From: Chloroflexota bacterium
GTDB lineage: Bacteria; Chloroflexota; UBA6077; SHYK01
Direction of reading: 5' to 3'
Assembly: GCA_016202435.1 (NCBI GenBank)
Contig: JACQOR010000089.1
Location: 1 to 62,568, forward strand
DNA length: 62,568 bases
The translations under genes were made by a program, and so were the position numbers. The notes beneath the pieces were generated by a model, which did not search any database, was not told where the DNA came from, and was given only the letters and a program-made list of their open reading frames with translations. Position 1 is the first letter of the stretch. The number at the start of each line of letters is the position of its first letter. Of this stretch, positions 3,748 to 62,568 are shown piece by piece.

Positions 3748-3959
3748 GGATTGGTTTCAGGCCGATCAAGCGCTTCCAACAGGCAATAACGCGCGCGAGA
3801 GAGCGTTTCACCAGATGGCGCAGGCGCCAGGGGCTGGCTGCGCCATCGACGGCCTGGCCACCCATCCTCCGTCAAGGCCTGAGCTGGTACGGCGGCCTCA
3901 GCGACCTTCGCGCTGGCACCCTCCACCTTGCAATCCTGTTCTTCGTTCTGTCCACGTGC

Positions 3960-4558: not shown

Positions 4559-5497
4559 GTGCGCAGTAAGGACTTCCTTTCCATCGAACAGCTCGACCCG
4601 GAGGAACTGAGCGCCCTCATCGCCGAGGGGCGCGCCTTGAAAGCCGCGCCCCTCTCCCGGAACACACTCCTTGCGGGGCAGTCCGTTGCCCTCCTGTTTC
4701 AGAAGCCGTCACTCCGTACCCGGGTGTCGTTTGAAGTTGCCGCGTCCCAACTGGGCGCCCAGTGCCTGTACCTCTCTCCTCAGGAAGTGGGGCTGGGGGA
4801 GCGTGAGGACGTGGCAGATGTCGCTCGAGTCTTGAGCCGCTATGTCAACTGTATCGTTGCGCGCACCTTTTTTCACCAAGACATCGAAGCGCTCGCCCGC
4901 CACGCGAGCGTGCCCGTAATCAACGGGCTCTCGGACCAGAGTCACCCGTGCCAGATCCTTGGGGATTTGTTGACCATAGAAGAGCACTTCGGGAGGGTCC
5001 GGGGGCTCACCGTGACGTTTGTTGGCGACGGCAACAACGTCGCGCGCTCGCTCGTAGAGGCCGCCCCACGAGCTGGTTTCTCGCTCCGGATCGCGTGCCC
5101 CCCCGGATACGAGCCGGATCCAAGGGCCGTGGCGGCAGCTATCCGGCTCGATCCCGAATCGGTGAGCGTTGGCCACGACGCGGTTCTGGCGGCAACCAAC
5201 GCCGATGTCCTCTACACCGATGTATGGTTTAGCATGGGACAGGAGGCTGAGCGCGATCAGCGAGCCGCGGTATTCCCGCCCTATCGACTTAACGAAGACT
5301 TAGTCAGGCGCGCACATCCCGACACCATCGTCATGCACTGCCTTCCAGCGCATCGCGGCGAGGAGATCACCGACGAAGTCATGGAGAGCCCCGCCTCGGT
5401 GGTCTTCGATCAGGCCGAGAATCGCCTCCACGCACAAAAGGCACTGCTCGCTCACTTGCTCGAGCACCGCTCTGGCTCGGGTCACCTCGAGCGCTAG
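4559..5497 (+). CDS. argF: Ornithine carbamoyltransferase
   Basis: KPSLRTR, HPCQ, DVWFSMG, HCLP and AENRLH motifs. Confidence 0.95.
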
Positions 5498-9063: not shown

Positions 9064-9498
9064 TTATTCCTCCGGCATCAGAGGGGGCCGTCCCAAGTAC
9101 CATCGGCGGTCGCCTTCCTTTAGTGGCACTCGCGGCGCCGCCTGCCAATGCGATCCCTCCGCCTGTGTGATGTCCAGGAAGATGGTGACGTTCCGTGGGC
9201 CGGAAGGCCCACCCGCCCAGCGTTCCAGCAGCGACGCTTGCTCGACAGCGACCCCAGTCACGCGGTACCGGTTCCCCAGCCCATTGAGCACGAACGCCTC
9301 CCCTCGGGATCGGTTCTCGGGAGCGATTTCGGCCAAAGCACCAGGACCGTCTGAAGCTTCCAGGGCGACGAAATAGCGCCGCACAGCCGGCTCTGGCCCT
9401 CTATCCCGTCCGACCGTCTCTCCGATAACACCCGTTGCGACCACCCCCGCGGCTAGCATCAGCAGCAGCATGGCGCTGCGGAACCCGTCACGCGCCAT
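9064..9498 (-). CDS. Hypothetical membrane-anchored/secreted protein (possible NTF2-like fold)
   Basis: N-terminal hydrophobic helix, then 'PEPAVRRYFVALEASD'. Confidence 0.65.
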   Translation of the reverse strand: MARDGFRSAMLLLMLAAGVVATGVIGETVGRDRGPEPAVRRYFVALEASDGPGALAEIAPENRSRGEAFVLNGLGNRYRVTGVAVEQASLLERWAGGPSGPRNVTIFLDITQAEGSHWQAAPRVPLKEGDRRWYLGRPPLMPEE

Positions 9499-39854: not shown

Positions 39855-39964
39855 GAGGCGCGACGCCGAAGGCTCTCCCGCCGAGGGGCCTTCGCGGCCC
39901 ATCGAAACGAACCCATCGCCGCTCGGAATGACAGGAACGTACACTCCGGTGCCTGAAAAGCGCA

Positions 39965-40058: not shown

Positions 40059-40796
40059 GTGATAGCTTCAATCGTCATTCGTGCCAAGAATGAGGCGCGA
40101 GATATCGGCACCTCCCTGACCCAGGTTTTCGCACAACAGGGGGTTCCGAGCTTCGAGGTAATCGTAGTCGACTCTGGGTCGACCGATGCCACCCTCGACA
40201 TCGCCCGACAGTTTCCGACCCGAATCATCCAAATCCCTCCCGAGACCTTCACCTACGGGCGCGCCCTCAACATCGGCGTACAGGCCGCGACGGGAGACTT
40301 TGCGGTGAGCCTCGCGGCCCACGCCCTTCCCTCTCACCACCGCTGGCTGGCAAACCTGCTCGCGCCCTTCGCCGATCCCACGATCGGCGGCGTCTATGGC
40401 CGGGAACTGCCGCGAGCCAACGTGACTCTTTTTGAGCTCTTCGGCATGTGGCTCTCTGGGGTCACGAGTACGAGACCCCGCCGCCAAGAGCGGGACATGA
40501 TGTTCTCGAATCGCAACGGCGCCTTCAGACGGGGACTCGTGCTCGAGCACCCCTTCGACGAGCAGATCCCCGGAGCCGAAGACCTCGCCTGGGCTGACTG
40601 GATCCAGCGCCACGGCTGGGCCGTCTACTACGAGCCTACTGCGCCCGTATACCACTCGCACGGGGAGTCGCTCCCGCGCCTCCTTCGCCGCATGGCCAAC
40701 GACCAGCCCACCATCATCGGACTCAAGCTCGGTATTCTCGCTCGCCGCCGTGCAGCCGCCGCAGGCCTGTCTGCCAAACTGAGCGTGAAGCACTAG
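40059..40796 (+). CDS. Glycosyltransferase family 2 (rhamnosyltransferase-like)
   Basis: SIVIRAKNE, VVDSGSTD, FTYGRALN, AEDLAW, VYHSH. Confidence 0.88.
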   Translation: MIASIVIRAKNEARDIGTSLTQVFAQQGVPSFEVIVVDSGSTDATLDIARQFPTRIIQIPPETFTYGRALNIGVQAATGDFAVSLAAHALPSHHRWLANLLAPFADPTIGGVYGRELPRANVTLFELFGMWLSGVTSTRPRRQERDMMFSNRNGAFRRGLVLEHPFDEQIPGAEDLAWADWIQRHGWAVYYEPTAPVYHSHGESLPRLLRRMANDQPTIIGLKLGILARRRAAAAGLSAKLSVKH

Positions 40797-44914: not shown

Positions 44915-46657
44915 TCAGTTCTTATCCAGATCGTGCCACCAATCCTGGTCGGTTCCCCACTTATAGACGCCGGTCGTTCCTTTGGACACCACCCAGGGGA
45001 TCGGCTCGTAGTAGAACGGCCAGAACGCCACCTCCCCCATGATCTTGTCCAGGAACTGCCTGCCGAGGGCCCTCATATCGGTGTCCAGCACCGCCATCTC
45101 GGTCCGCTCGATCAACCGGTCCATCTCCGGTTCGTTGTACCGGCCCCGGTTGTTGCCTCCGGTCCAGTTGTTGGCTTCCGTCGCAACCTGCGACCCATGG
45201 AACCGTCGGTTCCCGATCTTCGGCCCCGCCGTGATGTTAGATGCTCCCGTCTTCAACGAGATGAACTTGTTGTCGTTCTGCTCGGAGGCGGTGAGCACGT
45301 GGATCTGCAGGTTGATCCCCACCGCCTTCAGGTCCTGCTGGATGATCGAGTTCAGCTTCTCCCAGTCCGTACCCCGCCGGATCTGCACCTGGTAGTCAAA
45401 CCGCTCCCCGCTGGGCTGGTGCACCCGCACCCCGTCCGGGCCCATCATCCAGCCCGCTTGCTCCAGCAGCTGCACCGCCTTCCGCTGGTCGTACGGGTAG
45501 ATGTAGGGGAAGTCCGGCGCCTCGATCCAGTCCTTCAGCAGCATGTAGGGCTCATCGGTGGGAGCGTCGTTGACCCGCGCCGCCTTGAGCTGCCCCAGCG
45601 TCATGATGTTGGCCAGCTCCTCCCGATTGATCGCGATCAGCCCGGCCTGCCGCACTAACGGATTGACGAAATTGATCGGACGCGCATAGGTCAGGTCGCG
45701 CTGCAGCTCGTACTGGTTGGTCCCGTCCCGCTGACCGATGATCACCTCGTGCCCGGTCCCCTCTCGCTGGAACCGGTTGCGGAGTTCTTCGGCCAGCTCC
45801 ATCCCGATTGCCGGCGGCAGCAGCACGTCCGCCGCTCCGGCCAGGAACGTCGCCGTCATCGTATTGGGGTCGAAGACCGTCCTCAGGATGATCCGGTGGA
45901 CCTTCGCCGGCCCCATGTAGTATTCGTCAAATCGCCGGAACTCGACGTGCGACGCCGGCTCGAAGTTCACCAGCTTGAACGGCCCCGCCCCCACGTACTT
46001 GCTCGAGTTCAAATCGGAGAACTGCAGCTGGCTCGGGTCCTGCAGGTAGAGCGGCTCCCACAGGTGCTTCGGGAGCGGCGTCAGCCCCTCCCCGTTCCGA
46101 CCCAGGATCGAGAGCCGATTCCAGTGGGTCGTGAACGTGTACGGGTCCTGCACCGTGATGTTCGAGATGTACTGGATTCCGCCCCCCAGCGTTTGCTGCT
46201 TCACCGCAGGATCGTTCTTGATCTTGACCGTGAAGGCGATGTCTTCGGCGGTGAGCGGCGTGCCGTCGTGCCACTTGGCGCTGGGCACGATCTTCCAGGT
46301 CATGTCCATCGTGCCGTCCGGCTTGATGACCCACTTCCCGTTCTGCTGCGTCGGGATCTCGGCCGCCAGGCGGCGCTCCTGAGGTCCGCCCGGAATGCGG
46401 TTCGGCGCCGTCAACGGCTCCTCGGAGAACCCGGTCCAGTGCCGCCACGCCGCGCTCCCCTGCGCGCCGCTGATCACCTCGTCGAAGGTGGCAATCTCTC
46501 GCGCAATGAGGATGGTGACGATCTTCTCTTTCTCCGGCTCTCCGGAAATCCCCGGGGCCCCCGGAGTCGTCGGGGCTTGGCCCGGAGCGCACGCTGTCAG
46601 CACCAGAAACCCGATCATCCCTATCGACATCGACAGACGCAAATGCTTCCGCTGCAT
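44915..46657 (-). CDS. ABC family-5 solute-binding lipoprotein, paralog 1
   Basis: Lipobox LTAC, 'A.WHDG.PLTAEDI.FT', 'VGAGPFKL', 'RQAGLIAINR'. Confidence 0.92.
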   Translation of the reverse strand: MQRKHLRLSMSIGMIGFLVLTACAPGQAPTTPGAPGISGEPEKEKIVTILIAREIATFDEVISGAQGSAAWRHWTGFSEEPLTAPNRIPGGPQERRLAAEIPTQQNGKWVIKPDGTMDMTWKIVPSAKWHDGTPLTAEDIAFTVKIKNDPAVKQQTLGGGIQYISNITVQDPYTFTTHWNRLSILGRNGEGLTPLPKHLWEPLYLQDPSQLQFSDLNSSKYVGAGPFKLVNFEPASHVEFRRFDEYYMGPAKVHRIILRTVFDPNTMTATFLAGAADVLLPPAIGMELAEELRNRFQREGTGHEVIIGQRDGTNQYELQRDLTYARPINFVNPLVRQAGLIAINREELANIMTLGQLKAARVNDAPTDEPYMLLKDWIEAPDFPYIYPYDQRKAVQLLEQAGWMMGPDGVRVHQPSGERFDYQVQIRRGTDWEKLNSIIQQDLKAVGINLQIHVLTASEQNDNKFISLKTGASNITAGPKIGNRRFHGSQVATEANNWTGGNNRGRYNEPEMDRLIERTEMAVLDTDMRALGRQFLDKIMGEVAFWPFYYEPIPWVVSKGTTGVYKWGTDQDWWHDLDKN

Positions 46658-46840
46658 CCTTTACCTCTTTCTGTGGAATCACCCCCCGGTTCGGAATGAC
46701 CCGGGGATGACCTTCCTATGTCAGATGTCCCGCATGGTCTCTAGTGAAATCCGATGTTGTCTGCACCCTCCTCATTCAGTCGCGCAGTTCACCGACCGGA
46801 CGGCCCGGACCACTGGCGTGGATGATGGCGACCGGCTGAT

Positions 46841-46880
46841 TCAGCCCTAATCTTACCGCCCCTCGCCAGGGGAATGTCCA
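46841..46880 (-). promoter_or_regulatory. Cassette-type promoter (TAAGAT -10) for SBP paralog 1
   Basis: GGCGAGGGGCGG-TAAGAT, similar to the UbiD upstream GGCGAGGGGG-TAAGAT. Confidence 0.5.
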
Positions 46881-46982: not shown

Positions 46983-47058
46983 TGGCACCCCCGGGCGGAT
47001 TCGAACCGCCGACCAACGGATTAGAAGTCCGATGCTCTGTCCACTGAGCTACGGGGGC
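46983..47058 (-). tRNA. tRNA-Arg (anticodon TCT)
   Basis: 76-nt cloverleaf GCCCCCG...CGGGGGT-G-CCA, anticodon loop CTTCTAA, GGTTCGAATCC T-arm. Confidence 0.97.
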
Positions 47059-47176
47059 AGATAGCCACAGGCCCCCACATTGTATGCTCGCCCCATCCTG
47101 AGTTGGCATACGCCCACGGGTGCGCCAGGGAGGGATGAGAACGGGCCTGAGGCCGAATATTTTCAGAGCAGGAACC

Positions 47177-51417: not shown

Positions 51418-52926
51418 CTACGGCTCCCCTCGCAGCGGCGGCGTGGCGCCTGGCGGCCTCCGATATCCCGTTGCCTGCTCATAAGCATACGCGAGCTTGA
51501 TCATGAGACCCTCGCTATAGGGCCGGCCCATAAAGGTGATCCCCACCGGAAGGTCGTCGGTGGTGAAGCCCGCGGGAACTGAGATCGCCGGAACGTAGAC
51601 CAGGTACGTGTTGAGCTGAGTGGCCCCCTTGCCGCTCGCTCCCGCAGTGATGAGCGTGGGCTGGTGCTCCACGGTCTTGTGGACGATGGCGTCGAGGTTG
51701 TGATCCGCCATGACCTTGGCGATATTGATCGTCAGCTCTTCGCGGGCGGCAAGATACTCTGGATAGCCGGGTGGGTGTCCCGGCGGCCGTCCCTCGGGGC
51801 TGGCGGCGCCTCGAGCCCCGCGCACCTTGCTGTAGTCTGGGGATCGCAGCATCTCCTCCCGCGACTTGAACGGCGGGTTCCCACCTCTAGCGAAGTACAC
51901 GTCGAACGCCGCGTGGTCGTCGACTCCGCTTCGCTTGGCCAGCAGCGGAAGCAGATTGGGGATGACGATGGGATCGATGATCGTAGCGCCGGCATCCGTG
52001 AGCTCTTCAACTGCTCGATCGAAGACCGCGGCGACCTTCGCAAAATCCTCCGAGTCCGGCTCGGAGTTGCGCGCCATGGTTTCCCGCAGGACACCGATAC
52101 GAGCCCCCTTTAGCCCGTCAGCGTCGAGATACGCGGCGTAGGAGGGAGGAACGTGGCCGACTCCGAGCGCCGTGATGGGGTCCTCCGGGTCGTAGCCCAC
52201 CATCACCTCCAGCAGCAAGGCCGCATCGCGGACGGTCCTGGTCAGGGGGCCGAGCGACCCATTGGTCGTGGGCCACCCAGCGTACACGCCGCCGCGGCTC
52301 ACCAGTCCCGCCGTGGGCCGCATGCCCACGATCCCATTCCATGCCGCAGGTCGTCGGATGGAGGCGACGCCTTCCTGCCCGATGGCAACAGCAGCCAGGT
52401 TTGCCGAGACCGCCGCGCCCGGTCCTCCGGACGACCCTCCCACCGTGCGCTGGGGATCGAACGGGTTGCGCGTCGAGCCGAACAATGAGCCGTGGGTGTC
52501 GCCGCCGCCCAACTCTCCCAGCGTCGCCTTGGCCAGGATGATCGCCCCCGCCCGCCTGAGTCGCTCTACGACGAACGAATCCCTGGCGGGGAAGTAGTTC
52601 CGGAACAGTACCGAGCCAAGGGTCGTAGGCGTTCCCACCGCATCGATCTGATCTTTCAGCACGATCGGGACGCCGTGCAGGGGGCCGACCGGTCCCGACG
52701 ACCTCAGCGCCTCATCCAGCCGCTCCGCCTGGGTCAAGGCGTCGGGAGCAATGGTGATGATCGAGTTGATATGGGACCCGCCGCGGTCGTAGGCCTCGAT
52801 GCGATCGAGATAGAGCTGCGTCAACTGGCGCGCCGACGCGATCCGCGTGCCGTATGCCCGCTGAATGTCGTCGATGGTGGCTTCCAACAGGTGAAAGGTG
52901 TCAACTCCGCTCGCCGACTGCGTCAC
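51418..52926 (-). CDS. Amidase-signature family protein, paralog A
   Basis: GPLHGVPIVLKD, GGSSGG, variant GQEGVASIRRPA. Confidence 0.92.
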   Translation of the reverse strand: MTQSASGVDTFHLLEATIDDIQRAYGTRIASARQLTQLYLDRIEAYDRGGSHINSIITIAPDALTQAERLDEALRSSGPVGPLHGVPIVLKDQIDAVGTPTTLGSVLFRNYFPARDSFVVERLRRAGAIILAKATLGELGGGDTHGSLFGSTRNPFDPQRTVGGSSGGPGAAVSANLAAVAIGQEGVASIRRPAAWNGIVGMRPTAGLVSRGGVYAGWPTTNGSLGPLTRTVRDAALLLEVMVGYDPEDPITALGVGHVPPSYAAYLDADGLKGARIGVLRETMARNSEPDSEDFAKVAAVFDRAVEELTDAGATIIDPIVIPNLLPLLAKRSGVDDHAAFDVYFARGGNPPFKSREEMLRSPDYSKVRGARGAASPEGRPPGHPPGYPEYLAAREELTINIAKVMADHNLDAIVHKTVEHQPTLITAGASGKGATQLNTYLVYVPAISVPAGFTTDDLPVGITFMGRPYSEGLMIKLAYAYEQATGYRRPPGATPPLRGEP

Positions 52927-53055: not shown

Positions 53056-54567
53056 TTACGGCTCGCCCGGCAGCGGCGGCACCGTGCTGGGCGGCTTCCG
53101 ATGCCCCGTGGCCTGCTCGTATGCGTAGGCCAGCCTGATCATCGTGTCATCGCTGTAGGCTCGGCCCAAGAACGTGATGCCCACCGGGAGCCCGTCGGCC
53201 GTGAAACCCGCGGGCACGGAGATCGACGGGACGTAGACTAGATAGGTATTGAGGTGCGTCGCGCCCTTCTGGTTCGAATAGGGCGGGTTGACTCCCTCTC
53301 TGATCAACGTCGGCTGGTGCTCCACGGTCTTGTGGACGATGGCGTCGAGGTTGTGGTCCGCCATGACCTTGGCGATGTTGATGGTCAGCTCTTCCCGGGC
53401 GGCGAGGTACTCCGGATACGTCGCCCCGCCGCCGATTGGCGTCCCGCCACCCCGCTGTCGAAACACCTTCGAATAGTCGGGTGCCGCGAGCATTTCCTCC
53501 CGCGACTGGAACGGCGGATTTCCACCCCGTCCGTAGTACACGTCAAAAGCCTCTTCCTCGCCGGAGTTGCTTCGCTTTGCGAGCAGGCGAACCAGGTCCG
53601 GAATGACGATGGGATCGACAACCGTAGCCCCAGCATCTTCGAGCTCGCTGACGGCCTGATCGAACACCCGGGTCCCGTTCGTGAAATCCTCGGAGTCGGG
53701 TTCCGAGTTGCGCCCCATCGGCTCGCGCAAGATGCCGATTCGGGCTCCCTTAAGGCCGTCCGCAGCCAGTGCCGCCGAATACGGGACGGGAACGCGACCC
53801 ACCCCCAGCGCGGTGGCGGGATCCTCCGGATCGTAGCCCACCATGACCTCCAGGAGCACCGCCAGATCTCGGACGGTCCTGGCCATGGGGCCGAGCGATC
53901 CGTTCAGCATCGGCCAGCCATGGTACACGCCGGCTCGGCTGACCAGCCCCTGCGTGGGCCGCATGCCGACAACAGAATTCCATGCCGCTGGCCGACGGAT
54001 GGAGGCAAACCCCTCCTGCCCAATCCCAACCGTTCCAAAGTTGGCCGCCATCGCGGCTCCCGGACCTCCGGAGGACCCGCCGACGGTCCGCTCCAGGTCG
54101 TAGGGGTTCTTCGTCGAGCCAAATAGAGACCCGTGAGTATCGCCCCCGCCCAGCTCGCCGAGCGTCGCTTTGGCCAGGATGATCGCGCCCGCCTTCCGCA
54201 GCTTCTCTACCGCGAACGCGTCTCGGCTGGGGAAGTAGTCTTTGAACAGCACCGAGCCAAGAGTCGTGGGCGTTCCCACTGCGTCGATCTGGTCCTTCAG
54301 AATCACGGGAACGCCGTGCAGTGGCCCCACCGGACGAGGGGTCCGCAGCGCCTCGTCCGCCCGCTCGGCCTCGCTCAGCGCTTCCGGGTTGACCGTGATG
54401 ATCGAGTTGATCTTGGGACCGGCCTGATCATAGGCCGCGATGCGATCCAGATAGAGCTGCGTCAGCTCTCGGGCGGACACGACCCGGGCCGCGTACGCCG
54501 CCTGGATATCATCGATGGTAGCTTCCAACAGGCGAAACGTCCTCGCTTCACTCGGGGACTGCGTCAT
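53056..54567 (-). CDS. Amidase-signature family protein, paralog B
   Basis: GPLHGVPVILKD, GGSSGG, variant GQEGFASIRRPA; GAGGAGG RBS. Confidence 0.92.
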   Translation of the reverse strand: MTQSPSEARTFRLLEATIDDIQAAYAARVVSARELTQLYLDRIAAYDQAGPKINSIITVNPEALSEAERADEALRTPRPVGPLHGVPVILKDQIDAVGTPTTLGSVLFKDYFPSRDAFAVEKLRKAGAIILAKATLGELGGGDTHGSLFGSTKNPYDLERTVGGSSGGPGAAMAANFGTVGIGQEGFASIRRPAAWNSVVGMRPTQGLVSRAGVYHGWPMLNGSLGPMARTVRDLAVLLEVMVGYDPEDPATALGVGRVPVPYSAALAADGLKGARIGILREPMGRNSEPDSEDFTNGTRVFDQAVSELEDAGATVVDPIVIPDLVRLLAKRSNSGEEEAFDVYYGRGGNPPFQSREEMLAAPDYSKVFRQRGGGTPIGGGATYPEYLAAREELTINIAKVMADHNLDAIVHKTVEHQPTLIREGVNPPYSNQKGATHLNTYLVYVPSISVPAGFTADGLPVGITFLGRAYSDDTMIRLAYAYEQATGHRKPPSTVPPLPGEP

Positions 54568-54596
54568 TTGTCCTCCTCTTTTCGAGCCGACCCCGA

Positions 54597-54640
54597 CCGG
54601 CACCCATGTTAGCGCCTCGCCGCTGCCAATGCGCAAAGCA
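54597..54640 (-). promoter_or_regulatory. Cassette-type promoter for amidase B
   Basis: GGCGAGGCGC-TAACAT-GGGTGCC, homologous to the UbiD promoter. Confidence 0.55.
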
Positions 54641-54670
54641 CGGGGCCCGGGAACAATCTCCCGGGCCCCG
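54641..54670 (-). terminator. Hairpin downstream of SBP paralog 2
   Basis: CGGGGCCCGGGA-6 nt-TCCCGGGCCCCG. Confidence 0.7.
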
Positions 54671-54746
54671 GCAGCTGCCAGGTACCCTCAGTTCGCCTCT
54701 CCCGCCACATCAGGAGAGGGACACTTCGACTGAGGTTCAGCGAAGC

Positions 54747-56465
54747 TTAATTCTTATCCAGCTCCCACCACCACCCCTGATTGCCTCCGGCCGGGAAGAC
54801 TCCGGTCACTCCCTTCACCATCATCCAGGGGATGGGCTCATAGTAGAACGGCCAGAATGCCACCTCCCCCATGATCCGGTCCAGGAACTGCCTGCCGAGA
54901 TCCCGGAGCTCGGTATCGAGGACCGCCTTCTCGGTGGCCTCGATCAGCCGGTCCATGGCTGGGTCGTTGTAGCGACCTCGGTTGTTGCCGCCGGTCCAGT
55001 TGTTCGCCTCGGTCGCGATGTTGGAGGAGTGGAACCGCCGGGCGCCGATCTTGGGTCCGGCGGTCACGTTCGTCGCTCCGGTCTTGGTTGAGACGAACTT
55101 GTTGTCGTTCTCCTCGGTAGCGGTGAACACATGAAGCTGCAGGTTGATCCCAACTGCCTTGAGGTCCTGCTGAATGATCGAGTTCTGTTTCAGGAAGGCG
55201 GTGCCGGGGCGGATCTGTACCTCGTAGTCGAATCGCTCCCCGCTCGGCTGGTGCACCCGAACCCCGTCCGGACCGGGCATCCACCCCGCCTGCTCCAGCA
55301 GCTGTACCGCTTTTCGCGGGTCATACGGGTAAATGTAGGGGAAATCCGGCGCCTCGATCCAGTCCTTCAGCAGCTTGTAGTAGTCATCCGTGGGATGGTC
55401 GTTGACCCTCGCCGCCTTGCCCTGCCCGAGCGTCATTTCCGCCGCCAGCTCCTCGCGGTTGATGGCGATGAGCCCGGCCTGCCGCACCAGCGGGTTGACG
55501 AAATTGACCGGACGGGCGTACGTCAGGTCCCGCTGGAGCTCATACTGGTTGGCGCCAGTCCGCTGTCCCACCATCACCTGAGCCCCCCGCCCGCCGAGCT
55601 CCGCAGCCTCCTCCATACCGATGGCAGGCGGAAGCAGCACGTCGGCGGCGCCGGCCAGCAGATTGGCGGCCATTGCGTTGGCATCGTAGATCGTCTTCAA
55701 GAAGACGCGGTGGACCTTGGCCGGCCCCTTGTAGTACTCGTCGAACCGCCGAAACTCGATGTACTGGGCCGGCTCGTAGGACGCGAGCTTGAACGGCCCG
55801 GCCCCGACGTAGTCGCGCGAGTTCAGCGTAGAGTACTGGAGTTGGCTCGGGTCCTCCTTGTAGACCGGTTCCCACAGGTGCTTCGGCAGCGGATCAAGGC
55901 CGGTGCCATTCCGGCCCAGGGTCGAGGGCTGCTTCCAGTGGGTCGTAAACGTGTACGGGTCCAGTACGGTGACGTCGGAGATGTACTGAATCCCGCCCCC
56001 GAGAGTTTGCCGCTTCACGGCGGGGTCATTCCGCAGCCTGACCGTGAACGCGATGTCCTCGGCGGTGACCGGAGTGCCATCGTGCCACCGGGCGTTTGGC
56101 ACGATCTTCCAGGTCATGTCCATCGTGCCGTCTGGACGAATCACCCACTTCCCGTTTTGTTGAGTGGGAATCTCAGCCGCCAGGCGTAGCTCCTCAGGTC
56201 CACCCGGAACGCGATTGGCTACCGTCAGCGGCTCATGAGCAAACTCGACCCAGTGCCGCCAGGCAGCATTGCCCTGAGCGCCGCTGATGACCTCGTCAAA
56301 AGTGGTCATCTCGCGATTCATGACGACCGTGACGGTCTTCTCTTTCTCAGGAGCCGCCACTCTGCCGGTAGTCTCCCCGATTTGGGCCGGCTGGCCCGGC
56401 GCACACGCTGTCAAGACGACGAGTCCGAGCGTCAAGACCGATAGGATCGAGTGTTTCCGCTGCAT
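54747..56465 (-). CDS. ABC family-5 solute-binding lipoprotein, paralog 2
   Basis: Lipobox LTAC; closely similar to paralog 1 throughout. Confidence 0.92.
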   Translation of the reverse strand: MQRKHSILSVLTLGLVVLTACAPGQPAQIGETTGRVAAPEKEKTVTVVMNREMTTFDEVISGAQGNAAWRHWVEFAHEPLTVANRVPGGPEELRLAAEIPTQQNGKWVIRPDGTMDMTWKIVPNARWHDGTPVTAEDIAFTVRLRNDPAVKRQTLGGGIQYISDVTVLDPYTFTTHWKQPSTLGRNGTGLDPLPKHLWEPVYKEDPSQLQYSTLNSRDYVGAGPFKLASYEPAQYIEFRRFDEYYKGPAKVHRVFLKTIYDANAMAANLLAGAADVLLPPAIGMEEAAELGGRGAQVMVGQRTGANQYELQRDLTYARPVNFVNPLVRQAGLIAINREELAAEMTLGQGKAARVNDHPTDDYYKLLKDWIEAPDFPYIYPYDPRKAVQLLEQAGWMPGPDGVRVHQPSGERFDYEVQIRPGTAFLKQNSIIQQDLKAVGINLQLHVFTATEENDNKFVSTKTGATNVTAGPKIGARRFHSSNIATEANNWTGGNNRGRYNDPAMDRLIEATEKAVLDTELRDLGRQFLDRIMGEVAFWPFYYEPIPWMMVKGVTGVFPAGGNQGWWWELDKN

Positions 56466-56529
56466 TGCAGCCTCCCTGGGGCAGTTCTGCGGTCGCACGG
56501 CTATCCGCAAAGCTCATGTGCCCGTTTTT

Positions 56530-56575
56530 CAGGCACTCATCTTACTCCGTCTGCTTTACCAAACGCTCAAACGAG
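56530..56575 (-). promoter_or_regulatory. Cassette-type promoter for SBP paralog 2
   Basis: GGAG-TAAGAT-GAGTGCCTG. Confidence 0.55.
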
Positions 56576-56612
56576 AATGAGAGCCCGGAGGCGATCCCTC
56601 CGGGCCCTCATT
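56576..56612 (-). terminator. Hairpin downstream of SBP paralog 3
   Basis: AATGA..GCCCGGAGG / CCTCCGGGC..TCATT. Confidence 0.7.
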
Positions 56613-56631
56613 CTGGACACTGGCTGGAACG

Positions 56632-58428
56632 TCAGGTCTTGTCCCAGTACCAGATGTTGCCGGTCGAGTAGCCCGCCTCGCCCGGGCCCGTCACCCCCTT
56701 CAGCATCAGGATCGGCAAGGGCTCCCAGTAGAACGGGTGGTAGACCACGAGCGAGCCCGCGTAGTCGATATACCCTTTGTACGCTGCCTTCAGCTGCTGC
56801 TCGTCGACTGTGACCTCGATCTTCTCGATGAGGCGATCCGTCTCCGGGCTATACCAGCGGCCCCGGTTGTTCCCACCGATCCAGTTGTTCGCCTCGGACG
56901 CCAGCCCCGAAGAGTGCAATCGCCGGCCCTTGGCTCCGGAGGTGATCATAGCCGCGCCCGGCTTCTGACCAATGAACCGCTGATCCAGCTGCTCTGTCTG
57001 CGTGAGGACGTGCACGTCCAAATCCACCCCGACCGCCTTCCAGTACTGCTGGATGATCACCCCCACCTTGAAGGGCCCGCTGCCCTGGCGGACCAGCGCC
57101 TGGTACGTGAACCGCTCTTCGCCCGCGGCCGGCAGGTCGTAGGGAAAACTGCCGGTCGGACTACTGGCTGTCGGTCCACTGGCTGGATGCACCAGGATGC
57201 CATCAGGGCCCCTGGTCCAGCCGGCGGACGTCAGCAGCTCCTGGGCCTTGCGTGGATCGTAGGGGTATCTCCAGGGGTAGGTCGGCGACTCGACGTACTC
57301 CTTGATGTACGGGTAATTCTCGTCGTCGTTCGGAGACCAGAAGCTCGTCGCGATCTTTGAGTATCCCTGGGTCATGAGCTGCGTCAGCTCCTGTCGATCG
57401 ATGGCCTGGAGGAGCGCCTGCCGCACCGGTTGCTGGGTCATCCCGTAGACCGGTTTGGCAAACATCGGGTCCACCATCAGCTCGAAATTGAGCGCGTCCA
57501 GCCGATCCCCCATCACCAGCCGGTGTCCGCTTCCCTCCTTCGTCCAGCGCTCCTGCAGCTCCAGGGCCAGCTCCAGCTCGATCCCCTGAGGCAGCACCAC
57601 GTCGACCGCTTCCGCCAGGAGGTTGGCCGCCATCGTGTTCGCGTCGGGAACGATCCGCATGGTGACGCGGTCCAGTTTGGCCGGCCCCTTGTGGTACTCG
57701 TCGAAGCGATCGAAGGTCATGTGCGACCCCACGAGCCATTCGGTCAGCTTGAACGGCCCGGCGCCGATGAACTCGTCGAAGAAGTACCGCAGCTCCCCCA
57801 TGGTGGACTTGTTGGGGCCCAGGTACGCCGACTCCAGGATGTGCTTGGGCAGAGGATTGAGTCCGCCGCCCGCGGCGCCCAGGTTGGTCGTGGTTTTCCA
57901 GTGGGTCACGAACGTGTAGGGGTCCGGCGCTTCGACGCTCGTCACGTACTCTACGCCGCTACCCTTGAGACCCTGTTTCGCGACCTCTTTGTCCGTCCGT
58001 ACCGTGTAGGCGAACACGAAGTCCGCGCTCGTGACCGGAGCGCCGTCATGCCACTTGGCGTTCCGCACCAGCTTCCAGGTCATGTCCATCCTGCCGTCCG
58101 GGTATACCGCCCAGGTCCCCTTGGTCGTGCTGGGCAGCTCAGCCGCCAGCCGCAGGTCGCGGACGCCGTTGATGACCGGCCCGGTCAGGCCCTCATCCGC
58201 GATGGGCTTGCCGTGCAGATAGGCGGCGCCGCCGGCCGCTCCGCTGACGACGTCATCGAAACTGGCCTGATCCCGCTGCTGGACGAAGATGAGGGTTTTT
58301 TTTGCAGCCGGTGCCCCGGCGGCAGCTTGTTCCGCGCGCCCAGCCGCGGGCTGACTTGGCGCGCACGCACTCACAAGCAACAATCCGATCATCATCACAA
58401 CTGACAAACTCGTGTACTTTCGCTGCAT
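56632..58428 (-). CDS. ABC family-5 solute-binding lipoprotein, paralog 3
   Basis: Lipobox VSAC; WHDGAPVTSADF, IGAGPFKL, RQALLQAIDR. Confidence 0.92.
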   Translation of the reverse strand: MQRKYTSLSVVMMIGLLLVSACAPSQPAAGRAEQAAAGAPAAKKTLIFVQQRDQASFDDVVSGAAGGAAYLHGKPIADEGLTGPVINGVRDLRLAAELPSTTKGTWAVYPDGRMDMTWKLVRNAKWHDGAPVTSADFVFAYTVRTDKEVAKQGLKGSGVEYVTSVEAPDPYTFVTHWKTTTNLGAAGGGLNPLPKHILESAYLGPNKSTMGELRYFFDEFIGAGPFKLTEWLVGSHMTFDRFDEYHKGPAKLDRVTMRIVPDANTMAANLLAEAVDVVLPQGIELELALELQERWTKEGSGHRLVMGDRLDALNFELMVDPMFAKPVYGMTQQPVRQALLQAIDRQELTQLMTQGYSKIATSFWSPNDDENYPYIKEYVESPTYPWRYPYDPRKAQELLTSAGWTRGPDGILVHPASGPTASSPTGSFPYDLPAAGEERFTYQALVRQGSGPFKVGVIIQQYWKAVGVDLDVHVLTQTEQLDQRFIGQKPGAAMITSGAKGRRLHSSGLASEANNWIGGNNRGRWYSPETDRLIEKIEVTVDEQQLKAAYKGYIDYAGSLVVYHPFYWEPLPILMLKGVTGPGEAGYSTGNIWYWDKT

Positions 58429-58585
58429 CGCTACTCCCTTCTGGAAGAAGGACACCGGGTCGAGACGACCCGCGAATGGCGAAACTCCGACGTTCAGCTG
58501 GTCACTGATCGAAAACGGCTCCCCTGGCTCCTCCTTGCTCGGGCGTTAGCGCCCGCCTCCACGAGTATGGTCAGGAACTCGACAG
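58429..58585 (-). promoter_or_regulatory. Structured 5' leader of SBP3 (candidate cis-regulatory RNA)
   Basis: Homologous to 62143-62320, with paired substitutions in stems and an SD-sequestering hairpin. Confidence 0.55.
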
Positions 58586-58620
58586 GCGACCATCTTACTC
58601 CGACCGGAAGGCTGCTTCAA
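58583..58620 (-). promoter_or_regulatory. Cassette-type promoter for SBP paralog 3
   Basis: TTGAAG, 17 nt, TAAGAT-GGTCGCCTG. Confidence 0.65.
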
Positions 58621-58625
58621 TAAGT

Positions 58626-58658
58626 GAGGGCCCGATGGAGCGTATCCATCGGGCCCTC
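58626..58658 (-). terminator. Hairpin downstream of the UbiD gene
   Basis: GAGGGCCCGATGGA-5 nt-TCCATCGGGCCCTC. Confidence 0.72.
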
Positions 58659-58687
58659 CTGGTGGCTGCCTAGCGGCTAGATCAGGC

Positions 58688-60169
58688 CTACATCGTGTCG
58701 CCGCGCGCCACGGCGGCCGCTCCTCGCCCGTCGCCGCGCTGGGGCTCCTCCGTAAGATACTCGCCCCACTTGTCCATGATGCGCTTGCGGTAGGCCGGCG
58801 AGACGTCGTTCACCGGATTGAACTGCTCCTTCCAGGCGAACGGCTTGCAAGCGTCGATCAGCACGCATCCCACCGTGAGGCCATGCTCCAGCGGGATCTC
58901 CTCCTGCTCCGGCGTAAACCTCGGGCTGACCGCCGACGCCCAGTTGTTTCGGTAGATGTGAACCGACTCCTGCGGGTCCGTCCGGGAGGTGATCGCCCAG
59001 AAGACGTCTTTGGGGTCGTGGATGTCGACATCCTCGTCGACGATGACCAGGTACTTGGGCGGGCGGTTCCTGAGGCCGGTCATCACAAAGTCGGCGACCC
59101 GCTTGGCGTGCCCGGCGTACATCTGGTGAATTCCCACCACTAGGAACGGGCCGGCGTTGCTGATGCCGACGACGTCGTGGAAACCGGCATCCCTGATCAT
59201 CTTCATCAGCTGGACTTCGTTGCCCGGAAGGTATGAGCCGCGCCCGACCACGCGCTTGTAGGGTGGCTCTCCGCAGATGATCGGATCGTTCCGGTAGTAG
59301 ATGGTATCGATCCGGACCACCGGAGCCGGCACGCTATTGGCGTAGTGTCCCCCCCCTTCTCCGAACATTCCCTCGTTCCGCATCGGCTCATGATCCGGAT
59401 GCATGATGTAGCCTTCGAGCACCATCTCGGAGGACGCGGGGATCGGGATACCGGTCTTGCCTTTGACGACTTGCACCGGCGCGCCTCGCAGGAAACCGCA
59501 CATGTCCAGCTCTGAGACACCCCAGTTCTCGTTCTCCGCGGTCGCGACGAGCAGAGAGGGCTCCTGCCCGAGGGAGAGCACTGTGGGGCAGTCGAGGCCC
59601 TGCTCGAAGTAGTGGTCGCGGATCACCTGCCCGTGATGACCGTGCGCGGTATGCAGTCCCGTGTGGTTCCGGTCGTACACCTGGCTGCGGTACGATCCGA
59701 TGTTCACCCACCCCTCGTAGGGATCCAGCTCGAAACAGGCGCTGGACGTGCCAATGTAAGGACCGGCGTCCAGCTCGTGCCACAGCGGAGCGGGGAACTT
59801 GTACAGATCAACGTCATCCCCTTCCACGACGTTTTCGAGGATCGGGCCCGACGTGACCCATTCGGGCGGAACCGGCTTCTTCTCTTCCAGCCGCTTCGAG
59901 AGGAACGCCTCGAGATCCTTGCCTTCGAGGTCGAGCGGGATATTCGCTGCGAGTCGGCCTCGCTTCTTGGAGGAAAGGACGTTCGTGGCGACACGATGGC
60001 CCTTCGGGTACCCGGGGATCTCGTCAAACAGAAACAGCTTCGCGTTTTGCTTCTCGCCGTTGATCGCGTAGATCCCGCCGATCTCATCCAGAGCAGCACC
60101 ATTGATTTGTTCGAACTCCCCGAGTTCCTGAGCCTTGGCGATGAACTCCCGCAGATCGTCGAACTTCAT
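58688..60169 (-). CDS. UbiD-family (prFMN-dependent) decarboxylase
   Basis: MKFDDLREFI, NIGSYR (Arg), EGMFGE (E-x4-E), 'VIVDEDVD', 'V.WAI.SR.DP', 'IDACKP'. Confidence 0.93.
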   Translation of the reverse strand: MKFDDLREFIAKAQELGEFEQINGAALDEIGGIYAINGEKQNAKLFLFDEIPGYPKGHRVATNVLSSKKRGRLAANIPLDLEGKDLEAFLSKRLEEKKPVPPEWVTSGPILENVVEGDDVDLYKFPAPLWHELDAGPYIGTSSACFELDPYEGWVNIGSYRSQVYDRNHTGLHTAHGHHGQVIRDHYFEQGLDCPTVLSLGQEPSLLVATAENENWGVSELDMCGFLRGAPVQVVKGKTGIPIPASSEMVLEGYIMHPDHEPMRNEGMFGEGGGHYANSVPAPVVRIDTIYYRNDPIICGEPPYKRVVGRGSYLPGNEVQLMKMIRDAGFHDVVGISNAGPFLVVGIHQMYAGHAKRVADFVMTGLRNRPPKYLVIVDEDVDIHDPKDVFWAITSRTDPQESVHIYRNNWASAVSPRFTPEQEEIPLEHGLTVGCVLIDACKPFAWKEQFNPVNDVSPAYRKRIMDKWGEYLTEEPQRGDGRGAAAVARGDTM

Positions 60170-60258
60170 TGCTGGTTCCCCCCTTTTCTTGCTATTGGTT
60201 CGGGACCCTCACTCAAGCGCCGGTCGTTTCTTGCCCACTCGCCCATTCTCGTGACTGA

Positions 60259-60300
60259 CAGGCACCCATCTTACCCCCTCGCCTCAGGAAATTGCACACA
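60259..60300 (-). promoter_or_regulatory. Cassette-type promoter for the UbiD gene
   Basis: GGCGAGGGGG-TAAGAT-GGGTGCCTG. Confidence 0.55.
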
Positions 60301-60306
60301 ATCAAA

Positions 60307-60338
60307 GGAGCCCGATGGAGAGATCTCCATCGGGCTCC
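60307..60338 (-). terminator. Hairpin downstream of SBP paralog 4
   Basis: GGAGCCCGATGGAG-4 nt-CTCCATCGGGCTCC followed by TTTGATTG on the minus strand. Confidence 0.75.
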
Positions 60339-60357
60339 CGCAGTGGCTAGCCTGAAC

Positions 60358-62142
60358 TTAGTTCTTGTCCCACTCCCAGACGTTATTGGTCGCCGTCGAT
60401 CCCGAGAAGACGTTGGGCCCGGTCACCCCCTTCAGCATCAAGACCGGCAGGGGCTCCCAGTAGAACGGATGGTAGACCACCAGTGACCACGCGTGGTCGA
60501 TATACGCCTTGTACGCCGCCTTCAGCTCCTGCTCATTGATCGTGACCTCGATCTTCTCAATGAGGGCGTCCGTCGTTGGGCTGTACCAGCGGCCTCGGTT
60601 GTTGCCACCGATCCAGTTGTTCGCCTCGGTCGCCAGACCGGAGGAGTGCAGCCGACGGCCCTTGGCCCCCGAGGTGACCATCGCCGCGCCCGACTTCCGG
60701 CCGACGAACGCCTGGTCCAGCTGTTCGGACTGGGTGAGGACGTGCACGTCCAGGTCCACCCCAACCGTCTTCCAGTACTGCTGAATGATCACTCCCGTCT
60801 TCAGCGGCCCACTGCCCTGGCGAACCAGAGCCTGATAGTTGAACCGCTCTTCCGCAGCGCTCGGTAGATCGTAGGGGAAGTTGCTCGTCGGTCCGCTGGC
60901 CTGGTGTACCAGGATCCCATCGGCCCCCTTGGTCCAGCCCGCCGACGTCAGCAGCTCCTGGGCCTTGCGCGGATCGTAGGGGTATCTCCAGGGATACGTA
61001 GGTGACGTGACGTAGTCCTTGATGTAGGGCCAGGCCTCATTGTCGGAAGGCCATAGGCTCGTCGCGACCTGCGAATACCCCTGGGTCATGATCTGCATGA
61101 GTTCTTCGCGATCGATAGCCTGCAGCAGGGCCTGCCGCACCGGTTGCTGGGTCATTCCGTAGATCGGTCGGGCGAACAGCGGGTCCACCATGAGCTCGAA
61201 ATTGAGCGCGTCCCCGCGACTCCCGACGATCAGCTGGTGCCCGGTCCCTTCCCGCTGCCAGCGTTCTTTGAGCTCGAGCGCCAGCTCCAGCTCGATGCCC
61301 TGAGGCAGCGCCGCGTCCACTGCCTCCGCCAGGAGATTGGCCGCCATCGTGTTGGCATCAGGAACGATCCGCAGAGTGAGTCGGTCCAGCTTGGCCGGCC
61401 CCTTGTAGTACTCGTCGAAGCGGTCGAACGTCATGTGGGAGCCCACCTGCCAGTCCACCAGCTTGAACGGGCCCGTCCCGACGAACTCGTCGAAGAAATA
61501 ACGAAGCTCGCCCATGGTGGCTTTATTGGGACCCAAATAGGCCGGCTCCAGGATGTGCTTCGGCAGCGGGTGAAGCCCCTCCCCGTAAGCCGGGATGAAG
61601 GTGGTCGTGGGGAAGTGGGCTACGAACGTGTACGGGTCCAGCGTATCGATGCGGGTGATGCGATCCGCTCCGCCGTCCGTATTGCGCTGTTTGGCGACCT
61701 CCTTGTCGCTTCGCACCATCCAGGCAAACTGGAAATCCGCGCTGGTGACGGGCGTGCCGTCATGCCACTTGGCGTTGCGCACGATCTTCCAGGTCAGCTC
61801 CATGCTGCCGTCCGGCTTGACGACCCAGGTGCCTTTCGTGTCACTCGGAAACTCGGCCGCCAGGCGCAGGTCCCGCCCGCGTTCCCCCAACGACATGCTG
61901 AGGCCATCCCACACGACGTTTACGCCGTGCCGATAGGCGGAACCACCGGAGGCTCCGCTCACCACGTCGTCGAAACTGGCCTGGTCCCGCTGCATGACCG
62001 CGATGAGGGTCTTCTTGGCGGCAGGTTGCCCGGGGCCGGCTGCTTCCGAGGGCCTGCTCACGCTCGGGCTCGGCGCGCACGCGCTCACCACCAGGAATCC
62101 GATCATCATCACAGCTGACAGACTCCTGTGCTTTCGCTGCAT
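60358..62142 (-). CDS. ABC family-5 solute-binding lipoprotein, paralog 4
   Basis: Lipobox VSAC; closely similar to paralog 3. Confidence 0.92.
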   Translation of the reverse strand: MQRKHRSLSAVMMIGFLVVSACAPSPSVSRPSEAAGPGQPAAKKTLIAVMQRDQASFDDVVSGASGGSAYRHGVNVVWDGLSMSLGERGRDLRLAAEFPSDTKGTWVVKPDGSMELTWKIVRNAKWHDGTPVTSADFQFAWMVRSDKEVAKQRNTDGGADRITRIDTLDPYTFVAHFPTTTFIPAYGEGLHPLPKHILEPAYLGPNKATMGELRYFFDEFVGTGPFKLVDWQVGSHMTFDRFDEYYKGPAKLDRLTLRIVPDANTMAANLLAEAVDAALPQGIELELALELKERWQREGTGHQLIVGSRGDALNFELMVDPLFARPIYGMTQQPVRQALLQAIDREELMQIMTQGYSQVATSLWPSDNEAWPYIKDYVTSPTYPWRYPYDPRKAQELLTSAGWTKGADGILVHQASGPTSNFPYDLPSAAEERFNYQALVRQGSGPLKTGVIIQQYWKTVGVDLDVHVLTQSEQLDQAFVGRKSGAAMVTSGAKGRRLHSSGLATEANNWIGGNNRGRWYSPTTDALIEKIEVTINEQELKAAYKAYIDHAWSLVVYHPFYWEPLPVLMLKGVTGPNVFSGSTATNNVWEWDKN

Positions 62143-62320
62143 CGCTATCTCCTTCTCGGGGAAGGGACACCGGGCCTAAACGACCCGCGAATTGCGGCAC
62201 TCCGGCGCTTCGAGCTGACCACTCCCGGAAAAGCGAATCTCCTCATTCCCTCCTTACTCGGCGGGTGGCGTCTCCCAGCTCAGCGCTCCGTCCGACGCCA
62301 CGCCGAGGGCACATCGACAG
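62143..62320 (-). promoter_or_regulatory. Structured 5' leader of SBP4 (candidate cis-regulatory RNA)
   Basis: Homologous to the SBP3 leader; long 5' hairpin closed by CTCG/CGAG, then TAAGGAGG. Confidence 0.55.
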
Positions 62321-62360
62321 GGGCCCATCATACTTCGTTTGGCTGGCAAATGCTCGCAGA
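62318..62360 (-). promoter_or_regulatory. Cassette-type promoter for SBP paralog 4
   Basis: GAAG-TATGAT-GGGCCCCTG. Confidence 0.5.
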
Positions 62361-62363
62361 AGT

Positions 62364-62399
62364 GAGAAGCCCGATGGTGAGTTCGCCATCGGGCTTCTC
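62364..62399 (-). terminator. Hairpin downstream of SBP paralog 5
   Basis: GAGAAGCCCGATGG / CCATCGGGCTTCTC. Confidence 0.72.
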
Positions 62400-62423
62400 G
62401 ACTACGCTGCCGCTCGGGTCAGG

Positions 62424-62568
62424 TCAGTTCTTGTCCAGGCCGTGCCACCACTCCTGCTGCCCTCCAGCCGCGTAGACTCCGGTCGTTCCCTTGCTCACGA
62501 CCCAGGGAATCGGCTCGTAGTAGAACGGCCAGAACGCCACCTCCCCCATGATCCGATCCAGGAACTGC
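62424..62568 (-). CDS. 3' end of ABC family-5 solute-binding protein, paralog 5 (truncated by the window)
   Basis: QFLDRIMGEVAFWPFYYEPIPWVVSKG...WWHGLDKN*, matching the C-termini of paralogs 1 and 2. Confidence 0.88.
   Translation of the reverse strand, partial: QFLDRIMGEVAFWPFYYEPIPWVVSKGTTGVYAAGGQQEWWHGLDKN

Follow-up and report, generated by a model that had tools for sequence, protein, structure and literature searches.

Hairpins and promoter-like blocks repeated in the gaps of a solute-binding protein gene array in a Chloroflexota genome

Why do five consecutive gaps in one bacterial gene array look alike, when some of the genes they separate are unrelated? The question is raised by contig C65 (JACQOR010000089.1) of the Chloroflexota bacterium assembly GCA_016202435.1, an assembly of 1.76 Mb in 105 contigs that is about 77% complete; the whole 62,568 nucleotides of this contig are the window analyzed here. 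The alanyl-tRNA synthetase encoded in the assembly has its closest matches, at 55% identity, in Chloroflexota metagenome-assembled genomes. The array genes are all on the minus strand, in the order partial SBPx, SBPa, UbiD, SBPb, SBPc, amidase B and amidase A (SBP, solute-binding protein), with short gaps between them. Each of the five consecutive gaps from SBPx to amidase B, read on the minus strand, contains a long GC-rich inverted repeat followed by a block of the form G-TA(A/T)(G/C)AT-GGGYGCCTGTCG. An earlier note on this DNA had interpreted the gaps as a regulatory shell that was duplicated while its cargo was swapped; its plus-strand coordinates describe the reverse complement of the functional strand. 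We favor a more ordinary reading as the probable one, in which each gap would hold two ordinary signals close together, a terminator for the gene on its 5' side and, 28-38 nt further on, a promoter.

The hairpins and blocks, and a sixth block outside the five gaps, are as follows.

62364-62399, minus strand: hairpin T1, after partial SBPx; arms GAGAAGCCCGATGGCGA/TCACCATCGGGCTTCTC, 17-nt inverted repeat, 94% complementary, -29.7 kcal/mol
62315-62333, minus strand: block P1, before SBPa; GTATGATGGGCCCCTGTCG, -10 hexamer TATGAT at 62332-62327, nhmmer E=7.5e-5
60307-60338, minus strand: hairpin T2, after SBPa; 15-bp perfect stem, tail TTTGATTGTGTG, -31.7 kcal/mol
60256-60274, minus strand: block P2, before UbiD; GTAAGATGGGTGCCTGTCA, TAAGAT at 60273-60268, best match of both nhmmer and the covariance model
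58626-58658, minus strand: hairpin T3, after UbiD; 14-bp perfect stem, -31.1 kcal/mol
58580-58598, minus strand: block P3, before SBPb; GTAAGATGGTCGCCTGTCG, TAAGAT at 58597-58592
56574-56614, minus strand: hairpin T4, after SBPb; 18-bp stem AGAATGAGGGCCCGGAGG/CCTCCGGGCTCTCATTCT, conserved arms GGGCCCGGAGG/CCTCCGGGC, -36.8 kcal/mol
56527-56545, minus strand: block P4, before SBPc; GTAAGATGAGTGCCTGAAA, TAAGAT at 56544-56539
54641-54670, minus strand: hairpin T5, after SBPc; 12-bp perfect stem, arms GGGGCCCGGGA/TCCCGGGCCCC, -33.1 kcal/mol
54594-54612, minus strand: block P5, before amidase B; CTAACATGGGTGCCGGTCG, TAACAT at 54611-54606
46837-46869, minus strand: block P6, before the gene SBPd; GGCGAGGGGCGGTAAGATTAGGGCTGAATCAG, TAAGAT at 46855-46850, no hairpin, a tRNA gene upstream; covariance model E=0.077

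The association of hairpin and block is real and well beyond chance. The hexamers that the earlier note had placed at 54606, 56539, 58592, 60268, 62327 and 46850 are all present on the minus strand, and the homologous hairpin that it described ahead of the conserved -10 motif was confirmed from the sequence in all five intergenic regions. Counted from the conserved arm, the hexamer is 30-38 nt away; counted from where the full stem ends at its base, 28-33 nt. The degenerate motif proposed there, TAWSATGRNNNCC, has eight matches in the entire 1.76-Mb assembly, five of them inside the 8-kb array stretch. With a 23-nt weight matrix the five copies scored 25.7-33.3 bits, and the next best match in the genome scored 20.6 bits. 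The arms GCCCGATGG...CCATCGGGC form three inverted pairs (62369-62394, 60310-60335 and 58630-58654); the 9-mer arm occurs seven times in the window against 1.5 expected, a count reached by none of 100 shuffled sequences.

Similarity among the five gaps was limited to two short islands. In gap-by-gap comparisons the hairpin arms were 100% identical among T1-T3 and 67-78% identical between these and T4 or T5, and the blocks were 63-84% identical, most pairs exceeding all 300 shuffles. Loops, 5' flanks and the 30 nt past the block had the identity of shuffled sequence, and that of the spacers was barely above this level, with a few pairs exceeding their shuffles. For comparison, the four-fold degenerate sites of SBPa and SBPb were 54% identical, against 37.6% by chance, and neutral sites are therefore about three-quarters randomized. 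Two conserved islands in otherwise random sequence indicate purifying selection rather than gene conversion, because gene conversion homogenizes contiguous tracts, loops included.

These comparisons bear directly on whether the similarity is a mere residue of recent duplication or gene conversion, with one or both elements functionless. In favor of this, the strong copies are all found in a 16-kb part of one contig, and relatives have conserved nothing similar. SBPa and SBPb were clearly duplicated with their leaders attached, and the two have promoter, 5' leader and flanking terminators in common. Identity is nevertheless confined to arms and block, and gene conversion would have made the loops alike too. 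In addition, compensatory changes in the stems (below) need selection for pairing, and the block persists in front of UbiD paralogues that are only 62% identical. We consider a functionless residue quite unlikely.

The hairpins T1-T5 are very probably intrinsic (Rho-independent) terminators, a prediction that draws on their pairing, form and placement. The stems are 12-18 bp long, with folding energies of -29.7 to -36.8 kcal/mol. They start 17, 18-19, 23 and 29 nt after the preceding stop codon, and 76 nt after it in the gap between SBPc and amidase B (intergenic region 5, IGR5). In the outer stem pairs, A is common on the 5' side and U on the 3' side, and the 12 nt after the stem contain 4-7 T, compared with 18% T in the genome. 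In the common helix, from an alignment of only five related sequences, 9 of 20 pairs had changes on both sides. Cells were paired in 84.8% of cases, falling to 37-58% when the partner was slid by 1-3 columns, and none of 500 shuffles reached the covariation score. These compensatory changes show selection for pairing and, with the terminator-like form and placement, argue for an RNA stem-loop rather than a protein-binding site. The earlier note had reached the same view from the variable loops; the compensatory changes are a better basis for it.

Hairpins elsewhere in the genome behave as terminators are expected to, and T1-T5 fit this class. Stems of 10 bp or more were found in 118 intergenic hairpins, many of which have the classic AAAAA-stem-TTTTT form. 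Hairpins with stems of 11 bp or more had a density of 0.80 per kb where genes converge, 0.44 between co-directional genes and 0.15 where genes diverge, a roughly fivefold difference between gene ends and divergent gaps. Those in co-directional gaps lay a median of 31 nt from the upstream stop codon versus 103 nt from the next start codon. The array hairpins resemble known intrinsic terminators, including the bidirectional form with A-tract and U-tract, in having a GC-rich stem-loop soon after a stop codon, a U-enriched tail, and outer pairs that are A-rich and U-rich on their two sides with the pairing kept by compensatory changes. They differ in having interrupted U-tracts (4-7 U in 12 nt), unusually long stems (12-18 bp) and an identical 9-bp core in three copies.

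Some other hairpins in the genome were observed in passing. The SBPc-amidase B gap has a second, imperfect hairpin.

54686-54735, minus strand: second hairpin of the SBPc-amidase B gap; -27.2 kcal/mol, with a CCTCTCC...GGAGAGG unit

The unit itself, CCTCTCC-loop-GGAGAGG, is at 54697-54718. In the genome, CTCTCC..GGAGAG occurs 24 times and CCTCTC..GAGAGG 30 times, mostly in intergenic sequence, against 5 for a composition-matched control. GGAGAGG and CCTCTCC are about 2.7-fold enriched in upstream regions, and this hairpin family may be a repeat of the repetitive extragenic palindromic (REP) kind. On contig C101, terminator-like hairpins at 1323-1364 and 9441-9473 have a common stem GGCCCGAGCC/GGCTCGGGCC with different loops and flanks, which makes them another local pair of similar-looking terminators, again close to SBP and UbiD genes.

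The block is fairly likely to be a promoter of the housekeeping, sigma-A type without a -35 element, as predicted from its -10 hexamer, a GGG discriminator and a start-site region GCCTG. A further copy, on contig C101, precedes a UbiD paralogue (TTAAGATGGCCGTGCCTCAGTGTCAC, compared with GTAAGATGGGTGCCTGTCAGTCAC for the UbiD copy of the window) and has the hexamer TAAGAT; all seven block copies have a TAnnnT hexamer. The distance from block to start codon is 40-185 nt for P1-P6, and the start codons have good Shine-Dalgarno sites. We determined hexamer enrichment in 959 upstream regions, using a set of 1649 genes from a home-made gene caller. The most enriched were TATAAT (14-fold), TATACT (12-fold), TAGAAT (11-fold) and TACAAT (9-fold), and the block hexamers were enriched 5.6-fold (TAACAT), 5.2-fold (TATGAT) and 4.6-fold (TAAGAT). 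They are acceptable, not optimal, -10 elements. Positional frequencies around 260 -10-like hexamers had almost no -35 signal and no conserved discriminator, and a promoter without a -35 is therefore normal in this genome. An extended -10 (TGn) was absent from the copies, the bases before the hexamer being GAG, GGG, AAG, GCG, CGG and GCT. Pairs of -35 and -10 elements of SigB/SigF-like or extracytoplasmic function (ECF) type were rejected by eye, neither their spacing nor their sequence being common to the copies.

High-GC Gram-positive bacteria have promoters that consist of just a -10 element, and we know of no polymerase from the lineage of the array that has been studied. The discriminators of the seven copies (GGGT, GGGC, GGTC, GAGT, GGGT, TAGG and GGCC) are G-rich and never exactly GGGA. 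In Thermus, GGGA directly after the -10 is a basal promoter element that is read by sigma region 1.2 and strengthens promoters for the Thermus polymerase (PMC3526302). The array blocks are like these promoters in having TAnnnT followed directly by GGG, no recognizable -35 and no TG extension. They differ in that the fourth discriminator base is T or C rather than A, and in that conservation extends downstream as far as about +3 (GCCTGTCG) and, on the other side of the hexamer, for about 10 nt upstream, more than a basal element explains.

Several observations weigh against reading the gaps as ordinary terminators and promoters. The U-tails are imperfect, and a strict terminator scan (at least 5 T in 8) passed only T2. 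Three copies have the same nine central stem pairs, a degree of identity that the structure by itself would not require. As a -10 variant, TAAGAT is not one of the strongest in the genome, and a consensus scan found no canonical -35/-10 promoter; only IGR3 has a TTGAAG, at 17 nt. The box GCCTGTCG does not generally follow -10 hexamers in the genome (z<1). There was no preference for GGG or GCCTG after other -10 hexamers, either by position (260 hexamers) or by 4-mer enrichment (347 hexamers), and the association of GCCTG with TAnnnT reflects only the AT-richness of gaps. That GCCTGTCG is a plain polymerase contact is an assumption, and a bound regulator fits equally well. Finally, three copies have a conserved purine-rich GGCGAGG 5' of the hexamer, in a region of which RNA polymerase normally reads little sequence.

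The last of these points would suit a block that is mainly a dedicated transcription-factor site overlapping a weak promoter, with the SBP, UbiD and amidase genes forming one regulon for a common substrate. Conservation extends beyond the -10 in both directions, promoters of the genome do not in general have the downstream box, and the block is found only before functionally linked uptake and catabolic genes, including the UbiD paralogue on C101. Yet the block has neither dyad nor direct-repeat symmetry, and no regulator gene was found close to the array in the window or beside the C101 copy, in a genome that is 77% complete. The block is missing before about 23 further SBP paralogues and four further UbiD paralogues, and matches in relatives did not exceed the control. 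On balance we think a dedicated regulator site unlikely.

Two further explanations place the function of the block in the transcript. In the first, the array would be transcribed as one long RNA in which the hairpins act as 3' protective or processing stops and the AU-rich GUAAGAU is a cleavage site of RNase E/Y type that releases separately stable mRNAs. Genes on one strand with short gaps, an AU-rich single-stranded patch right after a strong stem in a genome of 64% GC, and the missing -35 element are all in keeping with this, and AU-rich patches after strong stems resemble processing sites described in other bacteria. It is difficult to reconcile with blocks that occur without a preceding same-strand gene or hairpin: the neighbor of the C101 copy is divergent, and that of the 46850 copy is a tRNA gene with a promoter-like TACAAT of its own. 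Moreover, TAnnnT hexamers behave as -10 elements throughout the genome, no conserved structure follows the block (z about 0), and there was no Rfam match. The predicted transcripts had no unusual 5'-terminal stem-loop (z -0.5 to +0.8). We rate processing of a long transcript as very unlikely.

In the second, the block is the start of a small upstream reading frame, the motif containing GGAG-N4-ATG and the peptides beginning MGAC, MVAC or MGPC. In four copies a Shine-Dalgarno-like GGAG, GGGGG or GAGG is indeed 4-7 nt before the ATG of TAAGATG. We rejected such a frame and give it next to no credence: it is three codons long in IGR4 (ATG AGT GCC TGA), ATT replaces ATG at 46850, the C101 copy has no Shine-Dalgarno site, and the frames differ in length and sequence with variation that is not concentrated at third codon positions.

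The promoter-like block is associated with unrelated genes. P2, before UbiD, and P5, before amidase B, are identical at 23 of 27 nt (GGCGAGGGGGTAAGATGGGTGCCTGTC versus GGCGAGGCGCTAACATGGGTGCCGGTC), and the two genes are not homologous. P6, at 46850, shares GGCGAGGGG(C)GGTAAGAT with P2, and none of 500 shuffles matched their local alignment; no hairpin precedes 46850, and of the related copy that the earlier note saw there only the block is homologous. The alignment of the C101 promoter with P2 was also significant. The proposal of one shell with swapped cargo is thus supported for the blocks in front of the non-homologous UbiD and amidase B genes, and part of the pattern is the simple paralogy of SBPa and SBPb.

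Nothing indicates that hairpin and block are an indivisible cassette. The copies at 46850 and on C101 are blocks without a hairpin, and the 47-nt gap of a paralogous SBP-UbiD pair on contig C100 has neither element. These cases make the elements better seen as two separable modules, and they look like modules that have been packed together. A stronger version of the modular idea is that the 27-nt block, perhaps with the hairpin, is a portable regulatory module grafted before unrelated genes (SBP, UbiD and amidase), so that one-gene units arise that are insulated and all controlled alike; the block would be read by a lineage-specific factor or through a special preference of the polymerase, and cargo could be swapped without rewiring. 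We regard this as doubtful.

A mobile origin would be another way to account for a unit of about 100 nt that recurs in five gaps, and the C100 gap without it looks like presence versus absence. Such a unit would be a small REP- or MITE-like element with an outward promoter, as in the Correia or ERIC/BIME families. Like REP/BIME, ERIC and the Correia elements of Neisseria, the array units are short, palindromic and intergenic; members of those families can terminate transcription and some supply outward promoters. Each of those families, however, has tens to hundreds of scattered copies whose ends are defined, whereas the unit described here lacks such ends, occurs in one array only, and has halves that are also found apart. 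Outside the locus we found only the block alone on C101, and clustering revealed no dispersed REP-like family of GCCCGATGG hairpins. There were no evident target duplications or terminal inverted repeats; no common outer helix paired the upstream flank with the block, and the folds differed between copies. Conservation is weak in the spacer and absent from the upstream flank and the loops. Searches of Rfam at the gathering score identified only tRNA in the window, and at a permissive E-value nothing better than E=0.13 in 54400-62568. A strict pattern had one match in metagenome_contigs, a chance match before an OmpA-like gene, and a loose pattern gave only chance matches from unrelated phyla in genome_contigs. 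We find a mobile element highly improbable.

The block is neither a genome-wide promoter consensus nor a dispersed regulon. Searches of the genome with a weight matrix on both strands, nhmmer and a sequence-only covariance model recovered only the six copies in the window, the C101 copy and a weak match at C38:24958. A matrix scan limited to upstream regions gave 22 forward versus 18 reverse matches at 9 bits or more. These scans agree with the expectation that the motif would not be common upstream of unrelated housekeeping genes.

Related genomes offered little. The earlier note had raised the possibility that neighboring genomes keep the shell with other cargo; in seven family relatives the outcome was negative or at best weak. 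A DNA search of 40 relatives had no matches. In the seven family relatives, a 19-mer search with up to three mismatches did no better than its reversed control, and GTAWGATGGG had 36 matches versus 22 for the control, a weak excess. Covariance-model look-alikes in the family relatives were also weak, but the position of five of the six, 20-100 nt upstream of the start codon of a catabolic gene, is in keeping with a promoter.

Sequences resembling parts of the block were noted at several other places. In relative G004 (L258, G004:C121), positions 3700-3830 and 5200-5330 are a tandem repeat of a gene 3' end plus the following gap. Each repeat copy carries GTATGATGGG(C/G)CGTTGTCG (GTATGATGGGCCGTTGTCG), like P1 at 17 of 19 positions, which is within chance expectation for that search and a weak lead; the first precedes a periplasmic binding protein of a family different from the array SBPs. 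In the window, the tRNA gene at 46986-47058 (minus strand) is preceded by TACAATgtGGGGGCCTGTGG at 47060-47090, and a glycosyltransferase gene at 40059 (plus strand) by TACACTccGGTGCCTGAAAAgc at about 39935-39960. Both resemble the box that follows the -10 in the array; the alignment of the tRNA-upstream box with the array block was not significant (42 of 500 shuffles).

We also determined which genes these signals would separate. The assignments of the array genes below are from Pfam.

Stop codon 62425-62423, minus strand: SBPx, partial family-5 solute-binding protein
60358-62142, minus strand: SBPa, family-5 solute-binding protein (SBP_bac_5, E=1.2e-57)
58688-60169, minus strand: UbiD-family decarboxylase (UbiD and UbiD_C)
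56632-58428, minus strand: SBPb, family-5 solute-binding protein (E=1.3e-57)
54747-56465, minus strand: SBPc, family-5 solute-binding protein (E=2e-49)
53056-54567, minus strand: amidase B (Amidase)
51418-52926, minus strand: amidase A (Amidase)
44915-46657, minus strand: SBPd, downstream of block P6

SBPa and SBPb are 75.7% identical as proteins, and SBPc is 46-48% identical to them. The sequence upstream of amidase A, in the gap after amidase B, contains neither hairpin nor block, and the two amidase genes are therefore probably co-transcribed.

Under the favored reading of paired terminators and promoters, RNA polymerase finishing one gene would terminate at the GC-rich hairpin with its moderately U-rich tail, and a new round of transcription would start about 35-45 nt further on, at the -10/GGG promoter. 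Transcription units would mostly consist of one gene: SBPx, SBPa, UbiD, SBPb and SBPc, followed by amidase B with amidase A. The copies would be paralogous, having arisen by local duplication together with or next to SBP genes, and the promoter block would also have come to stand before the non-homologous UbiD and amidase B. Selection would have kept the stem pairing and the block contacted by polymerase while the remainder drifted. Promoters and leaders copied by tandem duplication are the nearest parallel, and SBPa and SBPb, 76% identical, fit it. The block also stands before the unrelated UbiD and amidase B genes, so simple duplication of whole units does not explain the array. We read the array as ordinary paralogous terminators and promoters that call for no new mechanism, with the mild twist that one promoter block serves unrelated genes. 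Speculatively, the T-rich terminator tail, at about -35 to -45 of the next promoter, might double as an UP-like element.

Insulated units would let copy-specific expression evolve in an SBP family that has expanded to about 30 paralogues in the 1.76-Mb assembly. In the family relatives G001-G007, family-5 SBP had at least 32 matches in six of the seven and 19 in the seventh; first-look candidates ranged from 28 to 406 per genome. No match at E<=1e-40 was found in 33 genomes from other families of the order or class, and genome_contigs contained no close SBP homologues. In the window we saw neither permease nor ATPase genes. If the reading is correct, the locus would provide sets of natural variants of one promoter (seven) and one terminator (five) from an uncultured Chloroflexota lineage, and would show a gene family of dozens of copies keeping each copy independent and insulated. 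It would be useful for annotating transcription units in such metagenome-assembled genomes, and the elements could form a small collection of candidate parts with which to express genes in high-GC hosts. To our knowledge, the promoter and terminator rules of Chloroflexota have barely been charted.

The genome has six UbiD paralogues, the window copy and five others (contigs C101, C70, C59, C100 and C2), and several of them adjoin SBP genes. Those on C59, C70 and C101 adjoin or are near a gene of about 790 amino acids that by eye is the large subunit of a molybdenum hydroxylase of xanthine-dehydrogenase type, and a conserved gene of about 350 amino acids is also on C70 and C101. The UbiD-SBP neighborhoods suggest repeated uptake-plus-catabolism clusters. 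Another SBP subfamily has a different shared promoter-like block, (G)GGAC(N)CCTTACAAT(G/A)T..GTCCAC, found on C24 (11947-17427), C37 (2840-4597) and C7 (4052-5806) and having, in part, an inverted repeat GGGAC../..GTCC on either side of the -10. Each of the SBP subfamilies seems to have a paralogous promoter of its own.

Lastly, contig C18 opens with a perfect palindrome of 142 nt (1-142, 69-nt arms), the core of which is also at C28:78-117, at the start of C28. This palindrome is probably a contig-end assembly artifact.

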